The notes: generated from the letters alone by a model not told the origin. 43,544 nucleotides of DNA from Chloroflexota bacterium (GCA_016202485.1 JACQOP010000138.1:1-43544), one strand, 5' to 3'; counted from the stretch's first letter, positions 9,633 to 33,542 are shown. Made by a program: numbers and translations.

Positions 9633-9674
9633 AAAAAGCAGGGCCACGGCATTGCCGTGGCCCTGCTGGTTTTT
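9633..9674. terminator. Bidirectional rho-independent terminator
   Basis: A 13-bp stem gcagggccacggc / gccgtggccctgc is flanked by aaaaa and ttttt, between convergent genes. Confidence 0.7.
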
Positions 9675-24665: not shown

Positions 24666-25406
24666 ATGACTCTTTATTTGCACGAAATTGCAGAGACCAA
24701 TCACCGAATCCTCAATCCATTTACTGAAGATAAGCTGATGCTCCTTGGTGAGATTTGTCATCTCAAACCAGGGATGCGTCAGCTTGACCTTGCTTGCGGC
24801 AAGGGGGAAATGCTGTGCCAATGGGCGCGGCACTGGGGTATTCATGGTATCGGTGTGGACATCAGTAAAGTGTTTCTTATGGCTGCACACCAGCGCGCCG
24901 AGGAATTAGGAGTAGTCGATCAAGTAACGTTTATGGCAAGTGATGCCAGCCAATATGTTGCCGAAGCACGTAGCTTTGACATAGTTAGTTGCATCGGTGC
25001 AACCTGGATTGGAAATGGGTTGGCTGGAACACTTCAGTTGATGTTGCCAGGGGTGAAAGACGGTGGACTGGTGCTGGTTGGTGAACCATATTGGATAGAT
25101 GAGCCGCCAGACGAGGCCTATGAAGGGACTAACATTAGGAAAGACGATTTCACTTCTCTCAAAGGTACCCTGGACCGTATTGAGTCTGTTGGCTTGGAAC
25201 TAGTTGAAATGGTGGCGGCAAACACTGACACGTGCGACAGATATGTTGCCTCACAATGGTGGACGCTCAGCGAATGGTTGCATAGCAATCCTTCCGATCC
25301 CCGTGCATTCGCTGTCCGAGAAATGCTCATACGCGACCGACGGAACTATTTGCAATATGAACGGCGCTATTTGGGATGGGGAGTATTCGTACTGAAAGCA
25401 AAGTAA
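24666..25406 (+). CDS. Class I SAM-dependent methyltransferase
   Basis: Motif I LDLACGKGE. The gene looks more AT-rich by eye than its neighbours. Confidence 0.8.
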   Translation: MTLYLHEIAETNHRILNPFTEDKLMLLGEICHLKPGMRQLDLACGKGEMLCQWARHWGIHGIGVDISKVFLMAAHQRAEELGVVDQVTFMASDASQYVAEARSFDIVSCIGATWIGNGLAGTLQLMLPGVKDGGLVLVGEPYWIDEPPDEAYEGTNIRKDDFTSLKGTLDRIESVGLELVEMVAANTDTCDRYVASQWWTLSEWLHSNPSDPRAFAVREMLIRDRRNYLQYERRYLGWGVFVLKAK

Positions 25407-25495: not shown

Positions 25496-26626
25496 ATGAC
25501 GTCTTTTCGCCTGCGCTGCATTGAATGCGCTGCTCTCCATGACGCCGGTGTACGCACCCTTGCCTGCCGCCGGTGCGGGTCGCCTCTAGAGGTGCTGTAT
25601 GAGGGTGATGGCCCTTCCTATGACGCCGATTTCTCTGGCATATGGGGCCTGGGCGCGCTCCTGCCCATAGGCGACCGGTCTTGCATCGTTTCCCTGGGGG
25701 AAGGCAATACCCCAGTGGTGCGCCTGGAAGGGGTGGGGCGGGGGCTGGGCCTGGTTAGCCTTTGGGGGAAGCTAGAGTACCAGGCTCCCACCGGTTCTTT
25801 CAAAGACCGGGGCACGACGGTGCTGATGTCGGCGCTGAAGGAGGCGGGGGTCAGGGAGATCGTGGAGGACTCCTCTGGCAATGCGGGGGCGTCCCTAGCG
25901 GCCTACGCCGCCCGGGCGGGCGTGGTCGCCCATATTTTTGCTCCCTCCTCGGCGCCGGTAGCAAAGCTCCAGCAGATACAGGTGTATGGGGCGAAGGTGC
26001 ATACGGTGGACGGCTCCCGGGAGGCCGCTACTGAGGCAGCCAAGGAGTTTGCTGAAGAGCGGGGATTGGTCTATGCGTCTCACAACCTCAGCTCGTATGT
26101 CGCTGAGGGCACCAAGACCTTCGCCTACGAGATAGCCCAGCAGATGGCGGGCCGTATGCCCCGGCACGTGGTCATCCCGGTAGGCAACGGCTCCCTGCTC
26201 ATTGGGGCGTGGAAGGGGTTTTTGGAGCTGCGGGCCAAGGGGGTCATCGCCGAGATGCCACACCTCTACGGCGTGCAGGCAGAGGTGGTGCAGCCCATCG
26301 CTGCGGCCTACGAGGGCCGGGAGTGGCGTCCCCAGGAAGGCTCTCGTACCATTGCCGGGGGTATTTCTGTGGGCCAGCCGCCGCGCCTGCGCCAGGCCCT
26401 GCGGGCTATGCAAGAGACGGGGGGACGTCCTGTGGCGGTAACGGACGAGGCGATCCTGCGGTGGCAACTGGCCCTGGCGCGCCAGGAGGGCATCTACGCC
26501 GAGCCGACCTCGGCGGCGGCCTTTGCGGGACTGGAGGCCCTGGTGAGCCTGGGCTTCATTGCGGCTGGGGATACGGTGCTGGCGCCGGTAACGGGCATTG
26601 GCCTGAAGGATGCGCCGCCGGTGTAG
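25496..26626 (+). CDS. thrC: Threonine synthase (short form with N-terminal zinc ribbon)
   Basis: CIEC...CRRC ribbon, PLP-lysine motif TGSFKDRG and SSGNAGAS. Confidence 0.85.
   Translation: MTSFRLRCIECAALHDAGVRTLACRRCGSPLEVLYEGDGPSYDADFSGIWGLGALLPIGDRSCIVSLGEGNTPVVRLEGVGRGLGLVSLWGKLEYQAPTGSFKDRGTTVLMSALKEAGVREIVEDSSGNAGASLAAYAARAGVVAHIFAPSSAPVAKLQQIQVYGAKVHTVDGSREAATEAAKEFAEERGLVYASHNLSSYVAEGTKTFAYEIAQQMAGRMPRHVVIPVGNGSLLIGAWKGFLELRAKGVIAEMPHLYGVQAEVVQPIAAAYEGREWRPQEGSRTIAGGISVGQPPRLRQALRAMQETGGRPVAVTDEAILRWQLALARQEGIYAEPTSAAAFAGLEALVSLGFIAAGDTVLAPVTGIGLKDAPPV
26579..26624 (+). repeat. 46-bp direct repeat, copy 1 (thrC 3' end)
   Basis: ctggcgccggtaacgggcattggcctgaaggaTgcgccgccggtgt is identical to 29914..29959 except for one base. 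Confidence 0.95.
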
Positions 26627-26661
26627 TCGCAAACTACTTCAGAGAATTGTGTCGCAGGGTA

Positions 26662-26692
26662 TTGAGCTTCTAGTTACTGGAAGGTCTATTGT
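26662..26692 (+). promoter_or_regulatory. MerR-family-type promoter/operator (19-bp spacer)
   Basis: TTGAGC-19 nt-TATTGT. The imperfect dyad AGCTTCT-N7-GGAAGGT spans the -35 element and spacer, in the same register as CueR/MerR-type operators. Confidence 0.5.
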
Positions 26693-26797
26693 TTGTCTGC
26701 AACGTTGCACATCACTGGATGCAAGGAGAATGGGCCATGAAGGGGATCAGCAAGAAGAAGTGCCCGCTGTGTGGAGCCTAGGGCTACGCCCTTGATC

Positions 26798-26833
26798 CTT
26801 TCCCTTCTGCCCAGGCCTGGGCAGAAGGGAAAG
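26798..26833. repeat. Perfect 36-bp palindrome
   Basis: ctttcccttctgcccagg|cctgggcagaagggaaag has 18-bp arms, no loop and no following T-tract. Confidence 0.9.
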
Positions 26834-26912
26834 CCGGGATGAGGGTGGGGTACAGGCCTTACAGTTTGGAGAAGGCCGATTGTCGTCTTAGCAAGTATTC
26901 TTGGGGGTGATT

Positions 26913-27350
26913 ATGCGTATAGGAGTGCTGGCACGCGTTACGGGCATACTTGCCAGGACTATCCGCTTCTACGAGGCAGAGGGTTTGCTGGCTGAACCAA
27001 GGCGAACTGAGGGAGACTACCGGGACTATGATGCGGCGGCTGTGGAGCGGCTGGTGTTTATCAAGAAGGCCCGCCTATTGGGCCTGTCGTTGAAGGAGGT
27101 AGGGAGCGTCCTTCAGCTTCATGAACGGCAGGAACCGACGTGTGTACACGTCCGAGCATTGCTGGATGACAAACTATCCCAGGTGGAAAGGGCTATCCAG
27201 GAACTGCTGGCCTTCCGTGAGGAGCTGGTGCGGCTGAAGGCCCGGGCGGGCACGTTAGAGGACTGCTGCCCGACGGGAGGAAGCGTGTGCGGGATCATTG
27301 AAGGGTGGGAAACAGTGCGAGTGGTCACAGCAGGAGGACTGCATGAGTAA
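26913..27350 (+). CDS. merR: MerR-family heavy-metal-responsive transcriptional regulator
   Basis: N-terminal [27 protein letters not shown]. There is a Cys at the start of the dimerisation helix (EPTCVHV) plus a C-terminal CCPTGGSVC. The stop overlaps the merA start (ATGAGTAA). Confidence 0.85.
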
Positions 27351-28752
27351 CTATGACCTGGTCATTATTGGGGGGGGGGGTGCAGCGGCCTTTGCCGCAG
27401 CAACCAAGGCAGCAGACCTGGGAAGGAGCGCCCTGATGATCAATCACGGCCTGCCCCTGGGTGGTACCTGCGTCAACGTGGGGTGCATGCCCAGCAAGCA
27501 CCTGCTTGCGGTAGGGGATGAGCTGTGCTACCCCCAGCACCCCCGTTTCCAGGCGCTCCAGGATGGACACCACCCGTCACTGGACTTTGCTGAGGCAGTC
27601 CAAAGCAAGAATGAAATGGTGGCCCGGGCGCGGCAGGCCAACTATGAACGAGTGTTGGAGCACCTGGACGCGGTGGACTACGTGGAGGGGAAGGCCCGGC
27701 TGGCGGGGCCTCGGCAGGTGGAGGCCAACGGGCAGGTGTATGAAGGGGGGAAGGTGCTCATTGCTACCGGTTCTTCAACGAGACAGTTGCCAATTCCAGG
27801 GCTGGACAAGGTGCGGTGGCTGAACAATGTTTCGGCTATGGAGCTAACCCGGCTGCCTGCATCGCTGGTGATCATTGGCGCGGGACCCCTTGGCCTGGAG
27901 TTTGCCCAGATGTTTGCCCACCTTGGAAGCAAGGTAACGGTGCTGGAGGCTATGGAGCAGGTTTTGCCACGGGAGGAGCCGGAGGTGGCCCAGGAGCTGC
28001 AACGGTCCTTGGAAGCGGAAGGCATTGCGTTCCACCTGGGGGTTCGTGTGCAACAGGTTGCGGAACGGAATGGGAGGAAGGTGGTCACCTTCAGCGATGG
28101 AGAGCACATCCATGAAGCCGTTGGAGAGGAGCTGCTGCTGGCTGCGGGGGTCCAGGCCAACACTGCTGGCTTGGACCTAGAAGAAGCTGGGGTCAAGTTG
28201 GAAAGGGGCGGATTTATTGAGGTGGACCAGTTCTATCAAACGGCCAACCCGAGCATCTTTGCTGCGGGGGACTGCATTGGGAAGATGGCGCTGGAGACGG
28301 TAGCTGCAAAAGAGGGGGCTTACGCCGCAGAGAACGCCCTCACCGTGCCGGTGCGGACCGTCAACTATGACCATGTCCCCCATGCGGTGTTCACTAACCC
28401 CCAGGTGGCGTCGGTGGGCCTGACGGAGGAAGAGGAGATGCGGCGGTTCAATAGCTGCGCTTGCCGTACCGTCTACATGGACGCCGTCCCCAAGGCCCTG
28501 GCCATCAACGAAGACCGGGGCGTGTTCAAGATGGTGATTCACCCGCGCAGCTCCAAAATCCTGGGGGTGCACATCGTTGCTCCCCATGCGGCGGACCTTA
28601 TCCACGAGGCTGCCCTGGCGGTGAAGTTTGGCCTCACTGTAGACGACATCATAGATACCGTCCATGTGTTTCCAACCTTCAGCGAGGGAATTAAACGGGC
28701 GGCCCAGGCCTTTACGCGGGATGTTTCACTGATGAGCTGCTGCGTGGAATAG
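27343..28752 (+). CDS. merA: Mercuric reductase, core type without N-terminal HMA domain
   Basis: FAD motif [10 protein letters not shown], redox site [13 protein letters not shown] and a C-terminal vicinal Cys pair (LMSCCVE). Confidence 0.85.
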
Positions 28753-28762
28753 GGTGACCTCT

Positions 28763-28888
28763 ATGCCGGTAGTTATCGGGCTCTTGGTGTGCTGTGTTGT
28801 ACTCACCCTTTTTGTGTTGGGTGCTGCGCTAGGGCTAAGGGGGCCGGACAAGCATAAGGGGAGTGGCCTGATTGAGAAGGGGAGGTGA
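28763..28888 (+). CDS. 41-aa single-TM peptide with vicinal Cys pair (not in ORF track)
   Basis: The translation is MPVVIGLLVCCVVLTLFVLGAALGLRGPDKHKGSGLIEKGR. The ATG lies 11 nt after the merA stop with agggtga upstream. The stop lies within the SD region of the next gene. Confidence 0.45.
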   Translation: MPVVIGLLVCCVVLTLFVLGAALGLRGPDKHKGSGLIEKGR

Positions 28889-28895
28889 GGCGGCA

Positions 28896-29489
28896 ATGAA
28901 GCAAGAGCACATGTGGGTCCCTTTGAGCGCCCTTTTGCTCGTAACCATCGGATGTGGTGGACTGGCACAGCCGGAAGCTACGGCGACGCCTACAACCGCA
29001 ATGAGTATGCCTACAGTCTCTCCAACTCCTATGGACATGCCCATGGACTCGGCCAGCTCACAGGCCGGCCCCCCGCTGGTGATGGGCTATTACGGGGGAC
29101 AGCCTATGCTGTTTATTCATACCGAGGCGTCGGACATGGCTGTAGCAGAGATGCTCACGATGATGATGGGATCCAAGGTCTTAGTAGTCTCTAGCCTTAG
29201 CGGCGTACCTGATGAGTTGCTGGCAGATGTGTTTGTGTTCACAAACGGAGTCAGAGGTGACGGCCCTTTTGGGTATCAGCCCGACGTATTTGACCAGAGC
29301 CCTGATGAGGAAGGGTATACCCCGTTGCGGCGTGTGAATCTAGTTGTGTGGCAGGAAGGAGTGGTGGCAACGGAGTTGCGCTCGGCCAATGCGGTCAACG
29401 CCGCAATTGTGCGAGGGGAGGTCACCGTCACTCGCCCGGGTGTTGTAGTGAATATGCCCATCATTACCTGGCTTGGAGGCCAAAGATAG
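28896..29489 (+). CDS. Met-rich lipoprotein of unknown function
   Basis: SD ggaggtga 7 nt upstream, lipobox LVTIGC, Met-rich linker MSMPTVSPTPMDMPMD, then a globular domain of about 140 aa. Confidence 0.7.
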   Translation: MKQEHMWVPLSALLLVTIGCGGLAQPEATATPTTAMSMPTVSPTPMDMPMDSASSQAGPPLVMGYYGGQPMLFIHTEASDMAVAEMLTMMMGSKVLVVSSLSGVPDELLADVFVFTNGVRGDGPFGYQPDVFDQSPDEEGYTPLRRVNLVVWQEGVVATELRSANAVNAAIVRGEVTVTRPGVVVNMPIITWLGGQR

Positions 29490-29597
29490 CGAGCGACCAT
29501 CAACGCTCAATGCAGAAGGTGTGCTATGAGACGGTTGCTACACCTAGAGAACCTGTTTTTGCCCGTGCAGGGGTTGCTGCCCCTGCCGTGGTGATGA

Positions 29598-29855
29598 GTG
29601 GTCCCTGGCTTGCTCGGCCTCCTGGGCGCTAGCGGGGCTGGGCTTGCTCTGGCGCCCGCGTTGCGGGTGCTGACCTATCCATTGCTGGCCCTGACGGTGC
29701 TGACCCTGGGCCGGGGCTGGTATCTGCAGCTCCGTCATAAAGCTGCCACGCCCTGGCGTATGCGGTCGCGCTGGATATTGCTTACGTCCACTGCGCTGGG
29801 TGTGGGACTGTGGGCCTTGCGGTTTGCGGGATTGCTTGGTGCGAGGCCCTTTTGA
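29598..29855 (+). CDS. Small hydrophobic protein (about 3 TM, no Cys)
   Basis: GTG start immediately after tandem TGA TGA. It is the last ORF of the mer cassette. Function unknown. Confidence 0.4.
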   Translation: MVPGLLGLLGASGAGLALAPALRVLTYPLLALTVLTLGRGWYLQLRHKAATPWRMRSRWILLTSTALGVGLWALRFAGLLGARPF

Positions 29856-29862
29856 GAGGTGG

Positions 29863-29961
29863 GGGCTGGAGACCCTTGTGTGCCGTAGCATTATTCCGCT
29901 GGGGGACACGATCCTGGCGCCGGTAACGGGCATTGGCCTGAAGGACGCGCCGCCGGTGTGA
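29863..29961 (+). pseudogene. Orphan 3' fragment of a thrC-like gene
   Basis: It translates to GLETLVCRSIIPLGDTILAPVTGIGLKDAPPV*. The intact thrC ends GLEALVSLGFIAAGDTVLAPVTGIGLKDAPPV*. No upstream thrC body is present. Confidence 0.75.
29914..29959 (+). repeat. 46-bp direct repeat, copy 2
   Basis: See 26579..26624. It matches at 45 of 46 positions. Confidence 0.95.
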
Positions 29962-29977
29962 GGCAGTCCAGTGAGGG

Positions 29978-30310
29978 CTACCGGGTCGCGGTTGGTTCCT
30001 TGGGCCAGGGCTTTTGCTCGGGGTCAAGGACGAGGTGATATTTCATTTGCTCCTGTTTGCCGCTCTTGAAGGTAACGGTGATACCTATGGTGAACTCCCC
30101 CCACCCAGAGGTCTCCAAGGCAAACTTGTCTTCGCTGCTGGTACGCACCTGGTACGGCTCTGGAAAGGACGAATGCAAGAAATACTCCACTTGCTGGATC
30201 TCTTGCAGCCGTACTGTCGGCTCGTTGACAAAGACGCGCCAGCGGTAATATTGGCGGCCGCTGACGGTGACACCTAAATCCTTGGAGTAGTTGTTGAATT
30301 GTATGGCCAT
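29978..30310 (-). CDS. Prokaryotic YEATS (pYEATS)-like domain protein
   Basis: YYRWRVFVNEP...LQEIQQVEYFLHSSFPEPYQVR...KFALETSGWGEFTIGITVTFKSG fits the remembered pYEATS pattern (W.W.v, VeY.LHptFp, F.l...gWG.F.i). SD aggtgagg precedes ATG 30310. Confidence 0.65.
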   Translation of the reverse strand: MAIQFNNYSKDLGVTVSGRQYYRWRVFVNEPTVRLQEIQQVEYFLHSSFPEPYQVRTSSEDKFALETSGWGEFTIGITVTFKSGKQEQMKYHLVLDPEQKPWPKEPTATR

Positions 30311-30322
30311 GAGTCGCCTCAC

Positions 30323-30811
30323 CTAATCTGGGACATGAATGGCATCCCTTATCGTAGCCAGTGGAGTGAACCAGCGGACCTGCCACCGGTCGCCGTTCTT
30401 TTCCTTGAGCCTTAACTGGATATAGTCCGTAGGGCTGACGCTAGGCAGTAGGATACACTGCCATCCGCCCGGCCCCAGCGTAGGGAGCAGCTTGCCACGC
30501 TCCTTAGTCTGATTACTGTTCCCTTCCTTCAGTTCGTAGTTGCATTCCTCTGAGTCCAGGTCTACGGTTCCGTTTTCTCTGTCAGGAAAGCGCAAAGTGA
30601 CTGAGACCTGGCCTTTGGGGCGAATGGAGTCCCGGAAGGCAAAGATAACCGCGCCCAGAATCTCCACAATGCCTGCACCAATGAGCCATCGGAAGTAGTC
30701 AGGATCAGCCCTTGGGAAGAGTCCAAGTCCTACCAGGATTGCCGCAAGAAAGGTGCCCAGCAGGATGATTAGGAATGCGGCGAGTATTGCGTACCGCTCT
30801 CTCAGAGTCAC
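30323..30811 (-). CDS. 2-TM membrane protein with a soluble C-terminal domain of about 100 aa
   Basis: GTG start with SD gaggtga 6 nt upstream. The stop lies 12 nt before the pYEATS-like ATG. The gene looks more AT-rich by eye than its flanks. Confidence 0.65.
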   Translation of the reverse strand: MTLRERYAILAAFLIILLGTFLAAILVGLGLFPRADPDYFRWLIGAGIVEILGAVIFAFRDSIRPKGQVSVTLRFPDRENGTVDLDSEECNYELKEGNSNQTKERGKLLPTLGPGGWQCILLPSVSPTDYIQLRLKEKNGDRWQVRWFTPLATIRDAIHVPD

Positions 30812-30878
30812 GTTGTGTCACCTCATTGTAGCATCTGGCAGAAGGAACACCGCAACCGGGGAAGCGCATCCTCAGCTC

Positions 30879-32327
30879 CTACTCCGTCAGGCGCTGGCCG
30901 TAGTCTATGTAGGCGGTGCTGCCCACCTGGGACAGGGCGATCTCCTGGCGGTAGACACCGCCGTGAAAGGGGCGTTCGGCGCTATGGACTTCCCGCTCCC
31001 AGTGCACCTCTTCCGGCGCCGGCCCGTCCTTGAGGGCCTCCAGCAAGGGACGGCCGTCCAGGGGGACGCCAGGGTCAAGGCCCAGGAGATGTAGGATGGT
31101 GGGGGTGAGGTCCACGTTGCCGCTTGGAACTCTTGTGACCAGGCCCCGTTTAAAGTGTGGGCCGCGGGCAAAGAGGACGTTGTTCATTTCGTGCTTGCTC
31201 ATTCCGCCGTGCTGGCCACGGCCTGGGGCCGCGCCGGTGGCGTAGGAGATGCCCAGGAAGCCGTTCTCGTTGGGGCGGGAGTCCCAGCGGAAAGACATGG
31301 CCAGGTCCGGGGCGCGTGTGCCCTCGTTGCCGACGACATGAGCGGGCAGGGTCCCTGGGATGCCGGCGGCAGCGTCGGAGGCGGTGACTGCGCCGCACCA
31401 GGGCTGTGCCATCAGCCAGACGGTGAGCTTGTCAGTTACGCCAGCATCTTTATTGTGGGCATAGAAGAGGACGGAGCCGCCGTTGTGGGCGGCGTAGACG
31501 CCGCCGGGCCGGTCGCCCTCGGGGAACCCCGCTTCCTTGATGACTTCGCCTACGTTGACCACGCCCCCAATAGTGGCGTAGCCGTGGTCGGAAATGACCA
31601 GGATATCGGTGTCTTCGGCGCGGCCCATGCGCTCCAGCCAGCCCAGGATTTCTCCGAACTGCTGGTCTGCGTCATGGATGGCGCCATTGGAGACCGCATG
31701 GCCGACGCCGTGCCGGTGGTGGGAGTGGTCCGGCTCGGAGAACCAGATGAGGCTGACGGCGGGATCCCGCTCTGGCTGAACGTATTCGGTCAAGACCCGT
31801 TTGCCATAGACCAGGCGCTCAGTATTGGGGACGCTATCCTCGGGCCAGGGGCCGAAGCGTCCGATAATCTGGTCGTAGAGGCTGTAGGGTAGGGTGAAGT
31901 CTGGGTGGATGGTTGCCCCGCCGGAACGGTGGGCGTTGGGGTTGTGCATATAGGCGTTGCCGGAGGTGCCGGTACCCACTGCGATGTACTCCTGCCCGTA
32001 GCGATGGAGGATATCGGCGAGGGTAGGGGCTAGAAGCACCTCCCCCAGCTTGGCAGCCACCTCTTTGAGGGTTGGCTCAAGGACCGAGAAGGGGCGGTAG
32101 GGGTCAAAGTCCCGCATGACGACGGAGTTGGCGGCAATGCCGTGGTTGCCCGGGTAGCGGCCGGTCACCATGCTGGTCCCGTTAATACGGGTGACGCTGG
32201 GGAAGACGCAGTGGTGAGCGGCGAAGGTGACGCCCTCCTGTGCCAGCTTGTAGAGGTTGGGCATGACCTGTGGCGTCACGTTGGCAGGCTGGAGGCCGTC
32301 AAATACCGCAATAAATACACGTGTCAT
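30879..32327 (-). CDS. Alkaline-phosphatase-superfamily nucleotide pyrophosphatase/phosphodiesterase (NPP-type)
   Basis: AVFDGLQP, nucleophile block FPSVTRINGTSMVTGRYPGNHGI and VISDHGY. Confidence 0.85.
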   Translation of the reverse strand: MTRVFIAVFDGLQPANVTPQVMPNLYKLAQEGVTFAAHHCVFPSVTRINGTSMVTGRYPGNHGIAANSVVMRDFDPYRPFSVLEPTLKEVAAKLGEVLLAPTLADILHRYGQEYIAVGTGTSGNAYMHNPNAHRSGGATIHPDFTLPYSLYDQIIGRFGPWPEDSVPNTERLVYGKRVLTEYVQPERDPAVSLIWFSEPDHSHHRHGVGHAVSNGAIHDADQQFGEILGWLERMGRAEDTDILVISDHGYATIGGVVNVGEVIKEAGFPEGDRPGGVYAAHNGGSVLFYAHNKDAGVTDKLTVWLMAQPWCGAVTASDAAAGIPGTLPAHVVGNEGTRAPDLAMSFRWDSRPNENGFLGISYATGAAPGRGQHGGMSKHEMNNVLFARGPHFKRGLVTRVPSGNVDLTPTILHLLGLDPGVPLDGRPLLEALKDGPAPEEVHWEREVHSAERPFHGGVYRQEIALSQVGSTAYIDYGQRLTE

Positions 32328-32467
32328 GGGGCACCTCCGCGCAAGATGGCGTGATTCTATCACACTTGCAGGGGGTCTACCCGTGAACGCCGAGCCGAAT
32401 GTAGGAGCAGCTACTCATAGGATAACCCATGCAGGTGGCTGCCCCTGAATACGCTTGGCCCCCTAAG

Positions 32468-32962
32468 CTATACCTTTGTGTTTTTGCCCAGGTCCCACCC
32501 GCCGGCCACAGCCGAGCCCAAAGTCCCATCGGAGCTTTGTGGGGAGTACTTCCACTCAATTTTGCTGAAGTTGAAGCTGATTTCCTCCAGAGGTAACGTC
32601 TCTCCTCCCTTGGCGTTTCCTCCTGGCCTGACGGAGGAGATGATGACGTCGGTCATCTTGTACTCCAGGTATTGCTGCTGGGCCCCATCGGTCTTCTGGA
32701 ACTGTATGGTGACCTCTGGGATGTGTTCCCCGCTGGCGCAGGCCAGCATCAGGAGGGGAGTGGACTTGTCCAGGGATTTCACCACCGTGAAGTTGCTGAA
32801 ACTAGCCCGCTCGGCAGTCCCCGCCGCCGAGGATGAGACGGCGCTGGAAGGCTGGGTAACCCCAAAGCTGTAGGACAGGATATTTATCCAGTCTTTGTGC
32901 TTGAGTTGGTCCGTGCTTTCGCCGGGAATGGAGCCTATCTTGATAAATGCATCAAAGGCCAT
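32468..32962 (-). CDS. hcp: Hcp (T6SS tube protein TssD family)
   Basis: MAFDAFIKIGSIPGES..., DKSTPLLMLACASGEHIP and ISFNFSKIEWKY align by eye along the whole length with P. aeruginosa Hcp1 (MAVDMFIKIGDVKGES, DKSTPNLMMACSSGKHYP). SD aggagg. Confidence 0.9.
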   Translation of the reverse strand: MAFDAFIKIGSIPGESTDQLKHKDWINILSYSFGVTQPSSAVSSSAAGTAERASFSNFTVVKSLDKSTPLLMLACASGEHIPEVTIQFQKTDGAQQQYLEYKMTDVIISSVRPGGNAKGGETLPLEEISFNFSKIEWKYSPQSSDGTLGSAVAGGWDLGKNTKV

Positions 32963-33542
32963 TTTTAACCTCCTGTGTTGGAACGTCTGCTGGTGAGAAT
33001 ACCAGGTCAAAGGTGAACTCCGCTGTGCCGTCCCCGCCTAACTCCTGGGGACGTTGCTTAGCCAGATAGGTGCCCTTAGCGCCGGCGTAGCGGCCAGTCC
33101 CGGCGACCACCGTGTAGAGGTCATGCCCGGTTCTGGATGCCCTGCTTGTGCCCATGCCGAGAAGGGCGCCGTCCAGCAGGTTAAAGGTGTGGACCTCTAT
33201 CCTGGTGGCGGCAAAGGGGGTGGGGCCAAAGGGGGAGCCTATGGACAGGCAGTTGGAATAAAACTCGCCCAGCTTTAGGTCTTTTGACTCGTTGAGTAGT
33301 TCACCATACATCACCATCTGGTCTCCCATGACTGGCAACTCTCCCTGCTTGTGGTCCTGGGAGTAGAGGTGCCAGTGACGGCCATTCAGCCTCAGAGGGG
33401 TCTTAGACAGCAACGAGGGGGGGCCGATAACAGCGGCGCCGACACCGGAGCTCTTAAAGGCTACGGCGGCCCCTGCGGCTGCCAGGAGAATAGCCGCCCG
33501 TTTCAAGAAACTGCGCCTGGGGGCTTTTGCTGCATCTCTCAT
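32952..33542 (-). CDS. Tat-exported protein, dirigent/allene-oxide-cyclase-barrel-like
   Basis: PRRSFLKRAAILLAAAGAAVA Tat signal and a VVAGTGRYAGAKGT motif. It overlaps the hcp start by 11 nt. Confidence 0.65.
   Translation of the reverse strand: MRDAAKAPRRSFLKRAAILLAAAGAAVAFKSSGVGAAVIGPPSLLSKTPLRLNGRHWHLYSQDHKQGELPVMGDQMVMYGELLNESKDLKLGEFYSNCLSIGSPFGPTPFAATRIEVHTFNLLDGALLGMGTSRASRTGHDLYTVVAGTGRYAGAKGTYLAKQRPQELGGDGTAEFTFDLVFSPADVPTQEVKNGL

Follow-up and report, generated by a model that had tools for sequence, protein, structure and literature searches.

Direct repeats of the thrC tail around a mercury operon

We describe a mercury-resistance (mer) operon in a 43,544-nt stretch of DNA from an uncultured Chloroflexota bacterium from groundwater (GCA_016202485.1, JACQOP010000138.1:1-43544; this whole stretch is referred to below as the window), where it lies between an intact threonine synthase gene, thrC, and a second copy of the 3' tail of that gene, the orphan thrC'. 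The mer genes are bracketed by the resulting direct repeats (45/46 nt), of which the left-hand copy belongs to the intact thrC, and the right-hand flank leads through convergent genes to a phosphodiesterase gene (PDE). The rest of the 43.5 kb is housekeeping DNA. We use W for the lineage and locus of the window and L-numbers (L014, L020 and so on) for comparison loci. The features are listed here in window coordinates.

25496-26626, + strand: thrC, threonine synthase, intact, 376 aa, stop TAG (PALP domain; TIGR00260)
26527-26624, + strand: repeat copy 1, the live thrC tail, with a diverged arm (26527-26578) and a near-identical core (26579-26624)
26662-26692, + strand: MerR-type promoter/operator (-35 TTGAGC, 19-nt spacer, -10 TATTGT)
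26737-26781, + strand: 14-aa mini-ORF MKGISKKKCPLCGA (KKKCPLC) with an AAGGAG ribosome-binding site
26798-26833, no strand: perfect 36-bp palindrome (hairpin) between the mini-ORF and merR, from a repeat search and self-comparison
26913-27350, + strand: merR, MerR-family metal sensor (Pfam MerR_1 and MerR-DNA-bind; Cys77, Cys118/119, Cys126)
27343-28752, + strand: merA, mercuric reductase, short form without NmerA (CVNVGC active site; C-terminal CC in …SCCVE)
28754-28888, + strand: merX, 41-44 aa single-helix peptide with the vicinal pair LLVCCVV, directly 3' of merA
28896-29489, + strand: DUF7482 lipoprotein-like gene (PF24298; lipobox …VTIGC; third-codon-position GC, or GC3, 0.61)
29526-29855, + strand: MerT-like predicted selenoprotein, 109 codons, MRRLLHLENLFLPVQGLLPLPW-U-U-VVPGLLGLLG…, with tandem TGA TGA at 29592-29597
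29862-29961, + strand: orphan thrC' (repeat copy 2), with arm 29862-29913, core 29914-29959 and stop TGA at 29959-29961
29978-32363, - strand: right flank, consisting of pYEATS (29978-30322), a 162-aa gene (30323-30811) and the phosphodiesterase/AP-superfamily PDE (30879-32363), assigned by Pfam

The two copies (26527-26624 and 29862-29959) align over 98 nt at 83% identity, and the differences between them are concentrated at one end. The core, which is the last 46 nt of thrC, matches at 45 of 46 positions in uninterrupted identity runs of 32 and 13 nt, with the sole mismatch at position 33 being synonymous (T26611 versus C29946, GAT/GAC), whereas the upstream arm is identical at 36/52 positions. 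This step from 31% to 2% divergence (16/52 versus 1/46 mismatches) is sharp (Fisher p = 1.2e-4), and the probability of finding at most 1/46 mismatches is 0.002 even when we assume 17% divergence, which is typical of this conserved patch between lineages. Homology falls off sharply at both outer edges, beyond which in-register identity is 17-30%, and self-BLAST of the whole window recovers the thrC-tail pair as the sole significant direct repeat (E = 1e-21). Read in frame, the orphan is a 32-codon tail, GLETLVCRSIIPLGDTILAPVTGIGLKDAPPV, followed by a stop, and the corresponding stretch of ThrC is GLEALVSLGFIAAGDTVLAPVTGIGLKDAPPV, likewise to its stop. It begins 6 nt past the stop of the MerT-like gene and ends 17 nt short of the convergent pYEATS stop. 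The duplicate is a genuine copy of the thrC tail that did not arise by chance. When the window is compared with itself, no further thrC-tail relics appear, nor does a similar tail duplication around a low-GC methyltransferase insertion on the other side of thrC.

The read evidence consists of k=31 unitigs built from four groundwater metagenome runs, in all of which the mer cassette and its flanks have equal depth. A single unitig covers 29647-30435 without a difference, crossing the orphan arm, the core and the pYEATS flank. A contig mis-joined at the shared 32-46 nt would also yield the observed arrangement, and the unitigs give this explanation some room: they end at the 32-nt shared run and do not resolve the repeat, such that an integrated cassette and an empty site plus an excised circle yield the same k-mers. 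We nonetheless regard an assembly artefact as extremely unlikely, as both sides of the junction are found at equal depth in several runs, one unitig spans the arm, core and pYEATS, the repeat is shorter than an ordinary read, and the order thrC-merR-merA...PDE is seen independently in L020 and L021.

Between the copies, 3.3 kb of DNA carries merR, merA, a 44-aa membrane peptide with a CC pair (merX), the DUF7482 lipoprotein gene and the MerT-like gene. The promoter contains a dyad, CTTCTAGT-T-ACTGGAAG, at 26667-26683 inside its 19-nt spacer, an arrangement that is a hallmark of MerR-family promoters, and it precedes a three-cysteine MerR and a MerA with both the CxxxxC motif and the C-terminal cysteine pair, as in mer operons. 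MerA passes the cut-off of TIGR02053 (542.7 bits against 454.45), as ThrC does that of TIGR00260 (180.5 bits against 167.1). All NCBIfam matches of MerR fall under the metal-specific cut-offs, including that of the MerR equivalog, and we infer its metal specificity. The merX peptide, which also lies directly 3' of merA in L020 (7025-7200), matched no family model and could act as a minimal MerF-like ligand for Hg. Candidate pairs for Hg(II) uptake are LLVCCVV in merX and W-U-U-VVPGLLG in the MerT-like protein, which has a weak MerTP match. The DUF7482 and MerT-like genes occur together elsewhere, after merR in L024 and after merA in L055, and in L025 the DUF7482 gene neighbors HMA genes. Across the interval, GC content drops from ~65% to 55-62%, and GC3 is 0.61-0.73 in the cassette versus 0.77-0.82 in core genes. 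An Rfam scan of the cassette returned chance-level matches only, and we discarded the idea that a frame-2 "CCPC" motif near 29575 marks a frameshifted MerE.

Several of these points had been made by an initial reading of the DNA from its letters alone (hereafter, the sequence-only reading). Our comparison agrees with its account of a 46-nt recurrence with one mismatch, at the end of a 32-codon thrC-like orphan that diverges upstream. Domain scans likewise bear out its remark that the interval lacks an integrase or transposase; no integrase, transposase or other recombinase domain is present between the copies or in the open reading frames (ORFs) scanned across the 43.5 kb.

The thrC-PDE spot in related loci

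The nearest full-length ThrC sequences, all from Chloroflexota, share 67-69% identity with that of the window, and one truncated match in the protein collection reaches 72%. A scan of GTDB species returned no thrC relative above 55%, and an exact look-up of the window ThrC and MerA in public assemblies returned no record. Among the relatives, the space between thrC and PDE is filled in different ways. L020 and L021 have the order IsoDH-thrC-merR-merA-PDE, with PDE on the opposite strand, and L020 additionally has merX. In L014, thrC is followed by crp, grx, two unknown genes, a Prx-like gene and a GDCCVxC gene, and then by pYEATS, a 165-aa gene and PDE, while L022 has a 199-aa gene, the Prx-like gene and the GDCCVxC gene after thrC. 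L017 has merR, merA, the Prx-like gene and the GDCCVxC gene before PDE with no thrC there; in the same metagenome-assembled genome (GCA_016210395.1), thrC instead lies in L110, ahead of a xerC-…-topA-dprA housekeeping cluster. Finally, the more distant L111 has an empty site, in which thrC and the convergent PDE are separated by 35 nt. PDE is thus shared with L014, L020, L021, L017 and L111, and the longer right-flank synteny (pYEATS-165-PDE) with L014. From these sequence comparisons, the thrC-PDE spacer is a long-standing variable spot for mercury- and thiol-stress genes.

The left junction of the cassette is ancient. Alignment and BLAST show that W, L020 and L021 are homologous, indels aside, from just past the thrC stop into merR, and the common stretch includes the promoter/operator, the mini-ORF, the hairpin and the start of merR. 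The mini-ORF has counterparts MTSVNKKKCPLCWG in L020 and MTSGSKKKCPLCYG in L021, and the hairpin is found at the equivalent site in both, with compensatory changes (CTGCCGCGG/CCGCGGCAG versus CTGCCCAGG/CCTGGGCAG). This promoter-mini-ORF-palindrome leader could serve as an attenuator or encode a tiny thiol peptide.

The mer genes have also diverged to a similar extent as their neighbors. Between W and L020, identity is 75% for MerR, 73% for MerA, 76% for PDE and 67% for ThrC. Against the others, W shows 67-69% identity in ThrC, 75-76% in PDE and 75% in MerR, where L020 and L021 share 88.5, 94 and 94%, respectively. The pairwise identities of the three proteins give one lineage ranking, with W the most divergent, followed by L014 and then by L020 and L021. 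The thrC-merRA adjacency is common to W and L020/L021, and the pYEATS-165-PDE adjacency to W and L014; since both cross the deepest split among these loci, both are most simply ancestral. By this comparison, the promoter and merR-merA-merX appear to have stood beside thrC since before W split from the sampled relatives. The operon has not, however, been inherited as a block: MerA is nearest to that of L017 (84% versus 73% for L020), whereas MerR is nearest to that of L020 (75% versus 58% for L017), a conflict that indicates recombination inside the operon and makes the operon itself a mosaic.

The orphan is unique to W among the loci examined. No duplicate of the thrC tail is present in the 11 other thrC loci (L014, L020, L021, L022, L110, L111 and L001-L005), no thrC remnant or pYEATS lies near any of the ~80 other loci that carry a MerT-like gene, and a scan of viral and proviral contigs for the thrC tail gave 0 matches. 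Taken together, the shared junction, the congruent divergence and the lack of duplicates in relatives contradict the idea that the 3.3 kb went in recently as a single mobile unit.

Genomic islands and integrative and conjugative elements that occupy the 3' ends of protein-coding genes between attL and attR sites, and rebuild the end of the gene as they integrate, reportedly include SGI1/MGI-type elements in trmE or yicC and ICESt-type elements in fda. The W locus looks much like these, with a repeat of the last tens of nucleotides of a gene, the intact gene on one side, an orphan tail on the other and resistance cargo between. It could accordingly be read as a site-specific mer island in the 3' end of thrC, with the 46-mers as attL and attR and a recombinase that is lost or acts in trans. 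The direct repeats at a gene 3' end and an identity block that reaches exactly to the stop codon are in line with such an island, as are a decayed P-arm beside a selected terminal block (the expected look of an element-borne replacement tail), the lower GC3 of the cassette and the empty site in L111. Unlike in known islands, however, there is no integrase in or near the cassette, and none in the ORFs scanned over 43.5 kb. The thrC-mer junction is present without any attR in L020 and L021, where the cargo has diverged along with its flanks, and the only empty site found belongs to the more distant L111. Neither presence/absence polymorphism nor, in the k=31 unitigs, an excised form was seen. 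The repeats are also absent from the other 11 thrC loci, the tail is unmatched in viral or proviral contigs, and the other ~80 MerT-like or mer loci lack thrC-like ends. With this balance, an island of this type is distinctly unlikely. A recombinase gene does follow thrC in L110 (3574-8977), together with a HepT/MNT toxin-antitoxin pair, topA and dprA, and the synteny break in this locus falls exactly at the thrC 3' end, without a repeat. We rejected it as an island integrase, as it has an XerC/D signature, belongs to a housekeeping dprA-topA-xerC cluster and lacks a flanking repeat.

These comparisons divide what the sequence-only reading had proposed, namely the footprint of an insertion into the 3' end of thrC. 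A recombination joint is upheld by the sharp identity step, but a recent 3.3-kb island of the attL/attR type is not, and the notion of the mer genes as a discrete recent insertion fails on the left junction shared with L020 and L021, on MerR and MerA that have diverged like the flanks and on the missing second repeat. An empty site ending in a single tail, for which that reading had suggested searching among relatives, does exist in L111, though this relative is more distant. Of the three routes it had offered, homologous replacement from a donor carrying thrC-mer comes closest to the evidence, and an integrase that was lost or supplied in trans is unsupported.

Simple merR-merA operons of thermophiles and Chloroflexota-type bacteria sit among housekeeping genes, and merA of Thermus thermophilus is said to lie beside amino-acid metabolism genes. 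The W operon is like these in being chromosomal, with a short MerA that lacks NmerA, a MerR-type promoter and no transposon context; it differs in having the CC mini-peptide, the DUF7482 lipoprotein, the MerT-like protein with predicted selenocysteine and the thrC-tail scar. A gene-tail duplication around resistance genes looks like a mobile island, while the comparative loci point to a long-resident operon in a recombination hot spot, and such an operon is not evidence of recent mercury-resistance mobility in groundwater Chloroflexota.

Origin of the orphan thrC tail

The two halves of the orphan relate differently to thrC. Its last 45 nt match W thrC at 44/45 positions, compared with 33-35/45 for L014, L020-L022 and L110 and 23/45 for L111, and the core encodes the Ile of TGIGLKD, which is present in W and absent from every other homologue examined. 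Its first 51 nt match W at 35/51 positions, a value close to that between sister-lineage thrC genes and W (30-34/51). Changes in the arm are mostly non-synonymous and include a Ser at a Gly that is kept in 113/119 homologues, and the boundary between the halves coincides with the start of the conserved C-terminal ThrC motif LxPxTGxGLKDxPP. None of the 119 homologues has a ThrC tail closer to the orphan arm than that of W itself. The orphan is therefore a mosaic, or else a copy in which each half has its own history. Since the DUF7482 and MerT-like pair travels elsewhere without a thrC remnant or pYEATS, the orphan most likely arose in situ in the W lineage. Replacement of W thrC by a foreign allele ending at position -46 was rejected because the ThrC, PDE and MerR identities are congruent.

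We tentatively favor, at a little less than even confidence, a scar of single-crossover or cassette exchange in an old variable spot that houses a long-resident, MerR-controlled chromosomal mer operon. DNA would have been added or exchanged at the thrC-PDE spot by reciprocal crossover through thrC-tail homology, by Campbell-type entry of a circularised fragment or by a swap in which a pre-existing orphan provided the right-hand homology. Either route would leave a live tail on the left, the cargo, and a dead tail on the right. In the dead copy, the first 52 nt, never in a working gene, would then drift, and they now stand at clade-level divergence. The terminal 46 nt, on the other hand, would have been reset to or kept identical with the W tail via homologous exchange, be it gene conversion or the crossover itself; since this stretch of thrC hardly varies, they may reflect continued recombination with the live tail (concerted evolution) or the crossover tract. 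The direct repeats present today (32 and 13 nt perfect) could permit a rare RecA-type loop-out that would restore thrC and the convergent pYEATS with 17 nt between them. The predicted empty site reads …GGCCTGAAGGA joined to CGCGCCGCCGGTGTGAGGCAGTCC…, and the predicted joint of the circle is 29862-29959 followed by 26625 onward. We favor the crossover because it can proceed without a recombinase and agrees with the ancient left junction, the hot-spot behavior and the mosaic affinities of MerA and MerR.

Several observations weigh against this preference. Plain Campbell insertion of a diverged donor tail would leave non-identical 46-nt blocks, which makes an extra step necessary (mismatch correction, gene conversion, or a tail brought in by the element and adapted to the host), and RecA-type conversion across just 46 nt that lie 3.3 kb apart is inefficient. 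L020 and L021 might have deleted an orphan of their own. The lower GC3 of the cassette (0.65 in merR and 0.61 in the DUF7482 gene versus 0.77-0.82 in core genes) also fits a horizontal origin, and the collections searched hold no relative above 67-72% ThrC identity, leaving the event not directly dated or polarised.

Orphaned 3' gene ends have been described from successive displacement in Rhs, contact-dependent inhibition (CDI) and type VI secretion system (T6SS) effector loci (Kirchberger et al. 2017, PMC5361080), where they are attributed to homologous recombination or homology-facilitated illegitimate recombination (HFIR) (PMC5361080, citing Jackson et al. 2009). Those loci share with ours a conserved anchor gene, variable cargo, dead 3' fragments, the lack of a dedicated recombinase and mosaic histories; here, in contrast, the anchor is a housekeeping biosynthetic gene, and there is one orphan rather than an array. 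By analogy, the W arrangement may have been imported in one step from a related lineage by HFIR or a cassette swap. In one variant, the orphan is a chimera with its 52-nt arm from the functional thrC of the donor and its 46 nt from the recipient's own tail; in another, it is the recipient's tail, displaced when a donor thrC and mer segment replaced most of the native gene. Such an import would account for an arm divergence equal to that between thrC lineages, with most amino-acid changes at variable positions and the Gly-to-Ser change tolerated in 2/119 homologues, and it agrees with the mosaic operon, with the thrC-PDE spot as a hot spot for content change and with the known production of orphaned 3' ends by HFIR at Rhs and T6SS loci (PMC5361080). 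Yet left-anchored HFIR predicts the reverse of the pattern seen here, with the upstream part identical and the terminal part diverged. Moreover, W thrC does not stand out phylogenetically when set against PDE or MerR, the joint between merT and position -98 of thrC, 6 nt past a stop codon, is impossible within a working donor thrC, and the 44/45 terminal identity would still require conversion or mismatch repair. On these grounds, one-step import is unlikely.

The two thrC tails also allow the mer operon to be viewed as an excisable cassette, recombinase-free or driven by host Xer or a trans-acting integrase, that cycles between filled and empty thrC sites in the population. The 46-nt block would then stay identical because it serves as the working thrC end upon exit, while the unexpressed 52-nt arm decays. 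Such a cassette would be a "shrinking-homology" mobile operon aimed at the tail of an essential gene, and we consider it quite improbable.

A retained function for the orphan is very unlikely, be it as a small ORF or as part of a bidirectional terminator or 3' UTR where the mer and pYEATS operons converge. The orphan does fill the convergent gap (6 nt from merT and 17 nt from the pYEATS stop), and its 46 nt are better preserved than the remainder. No terminator-like hairpin, however, is predicted in 29862-29961, the nearest being at 29753-29774 and 29992-30010; another function would leave the synonymous-site identity to thrC unexplained, and such a piece is kept in no other lineage examined. 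The thrC-tail scar is of a known kind and modest in itself, though an identity step at a protein-conservation boundary makes it a clean example that bears on how short repeats are maintained. The predicted selenoprotein that emerged as a by-product matters more.

A MerT-like gene with tandem UGA codons

The predicted tandem-selenocysteine transporter is the most interesting element of the interval. Gene callers annotate just the last 85 codons in W (29598-29855) and cut the whole family likewise at UGA-UGA. The same leader and TGA TGA arrangement is found in L024 (10641-10976), and in an exhaustive protein search nearly all homologues start at that same residue, while one fuses leader and body in frame. 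A codon-degenerate metagenome scan yielded 84 loci (L026-L109), most of them in the family (~80), with the leader …LLPLPW and the body VVPGLLG… conserved. The motif is TGA-TGA (UU) in 75/82 members and TGC-TGA (CU) in 7/82, the second position being TGA in every one; Cys-Cys occurs in 0, in a scan whose pattern required the …PLPW context, so that Cys-Cys relatives in other contexts could escape it. As the gene's own stop is also TGA, this codon has not been reassigned. When cysteine stands in for the UGA-encoded residues, the protein has a weak MerTP match that starts exactly at the pair, and family matches to MerT(P) models have E ~1e-3; there is no dedicated model for the family in NCBIfam release 20 or Pfam.

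Two hairpins, together spanning 29607-29669, lie inside the gene downstream of the pair:

29607-29648, + strand: hairpin A, base ~12 nt and apex ~33-38 nt after the first UGA
29653-29669, + strand: hairpin B, GCGCCYGC-GUU-GCRGGUGC

Across the family, pairing reaches 87.5% in stem A and 94% in stem B, compared with 24-59% in slid controls. The apex of hairpin A is variable, but its structure is conserved (mean fold z = -1.78 over 59 sequences). In hairpin B, the pair 69-77 occurs as CG in 20, UA in 18 and UG in 4 sequences, with a synonymous Pro base covarying with a Gln/Arg base, and 0/500 shuffles reach the observed covariation score. With a conserved hairpin thus placed downstream of the UGA, A and B are candidate selenocysteine insertion sequence (SECIS) elements. 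The GUU loop of hairpin B resembles the loop that follows the UGA of the Prx-like gene in relatives. An alternative in which the 85-aa ORF stands as its own gene, translationally coupled to a leader ORF (TGATGAGTG), was rejected because of the TGC in place of the first TGA in 7 homologues, the in-frame leader-body fusion and the conserved SECIS-like structure. SelA-like genes occur near L017 and L111, and the selenocysteine machinery genes (selA, selB, selC and selD) are not within the 43.5 kb of the window. The fused homologue, P0373 (82 aa), joins the leader …GLLPLPW to …PLLAVTLVML…, with the UU pair and first helix lost in frame, which reflects either a natural deletion or faulty assembly.

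Earlier work has described MerT-type selenoproteins, CU forms among them (PMC9312934; bioRxiv 10.1101/2022.07.06.499078), and we found no description of a UU form in the literature. Like the known proteins, the family consists of small membrane proteins whose helix 1 is predicted to contain selenocysteine in its Hg-binding vicinal pair, and its CU members probably correspond to the selenocysteine-containing MerT already described. The window gene and 75/82 family members differ in being UU, with no Cys-Cys member found. If both UGA codons are read as selenocysteine, a vicinal diselenol would take the place of the classic Hg-binding Cys-Cys, and the gene would provide a natural test case of two adjacent UGA codons decoded with one nearby SECIS.

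The thrC-PDE spot is rich in selenoproteins across the clade. In relatives, ORFs that appear as "44 aa" and "125 aa AhpC-like" are one thioredoxin-fold selenoprotein, …LLFYRGHW-U-PYC…, and this Prx-like W-U-P-Y-C protein is encoded at 13796-14317 in L014, ~10330-10854 in L017 and ~12515-13036 in L022. Its gene has a 7-bp hairpin with an AGUUG loop ~10 nt after the UGA and is followed by a GDCCVxC (seleno)protein gene (NF041374).

Elsewhere in the window, a class-I S-adenosylmethionine-dependent methyltransferase gene (24666-25406) with ~50% GC (window mean ~65%) lies between IsoDH and thrC, which are only 7 nt apart in L021; it is a separate small insertion specific to the W lineage, without a flanking repeat. 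On the right, the prokaryotic YEATS-domain gene and its conserved 162-aa partner (29978-30811) adjoin PDE, and a lone T6SS Hcp-family gene is found farther downstream at 32468-33010. A second near-perfect palindrome (31 nt, 97%) occupies an intergenic position at 9637-9667, far from the mer region.

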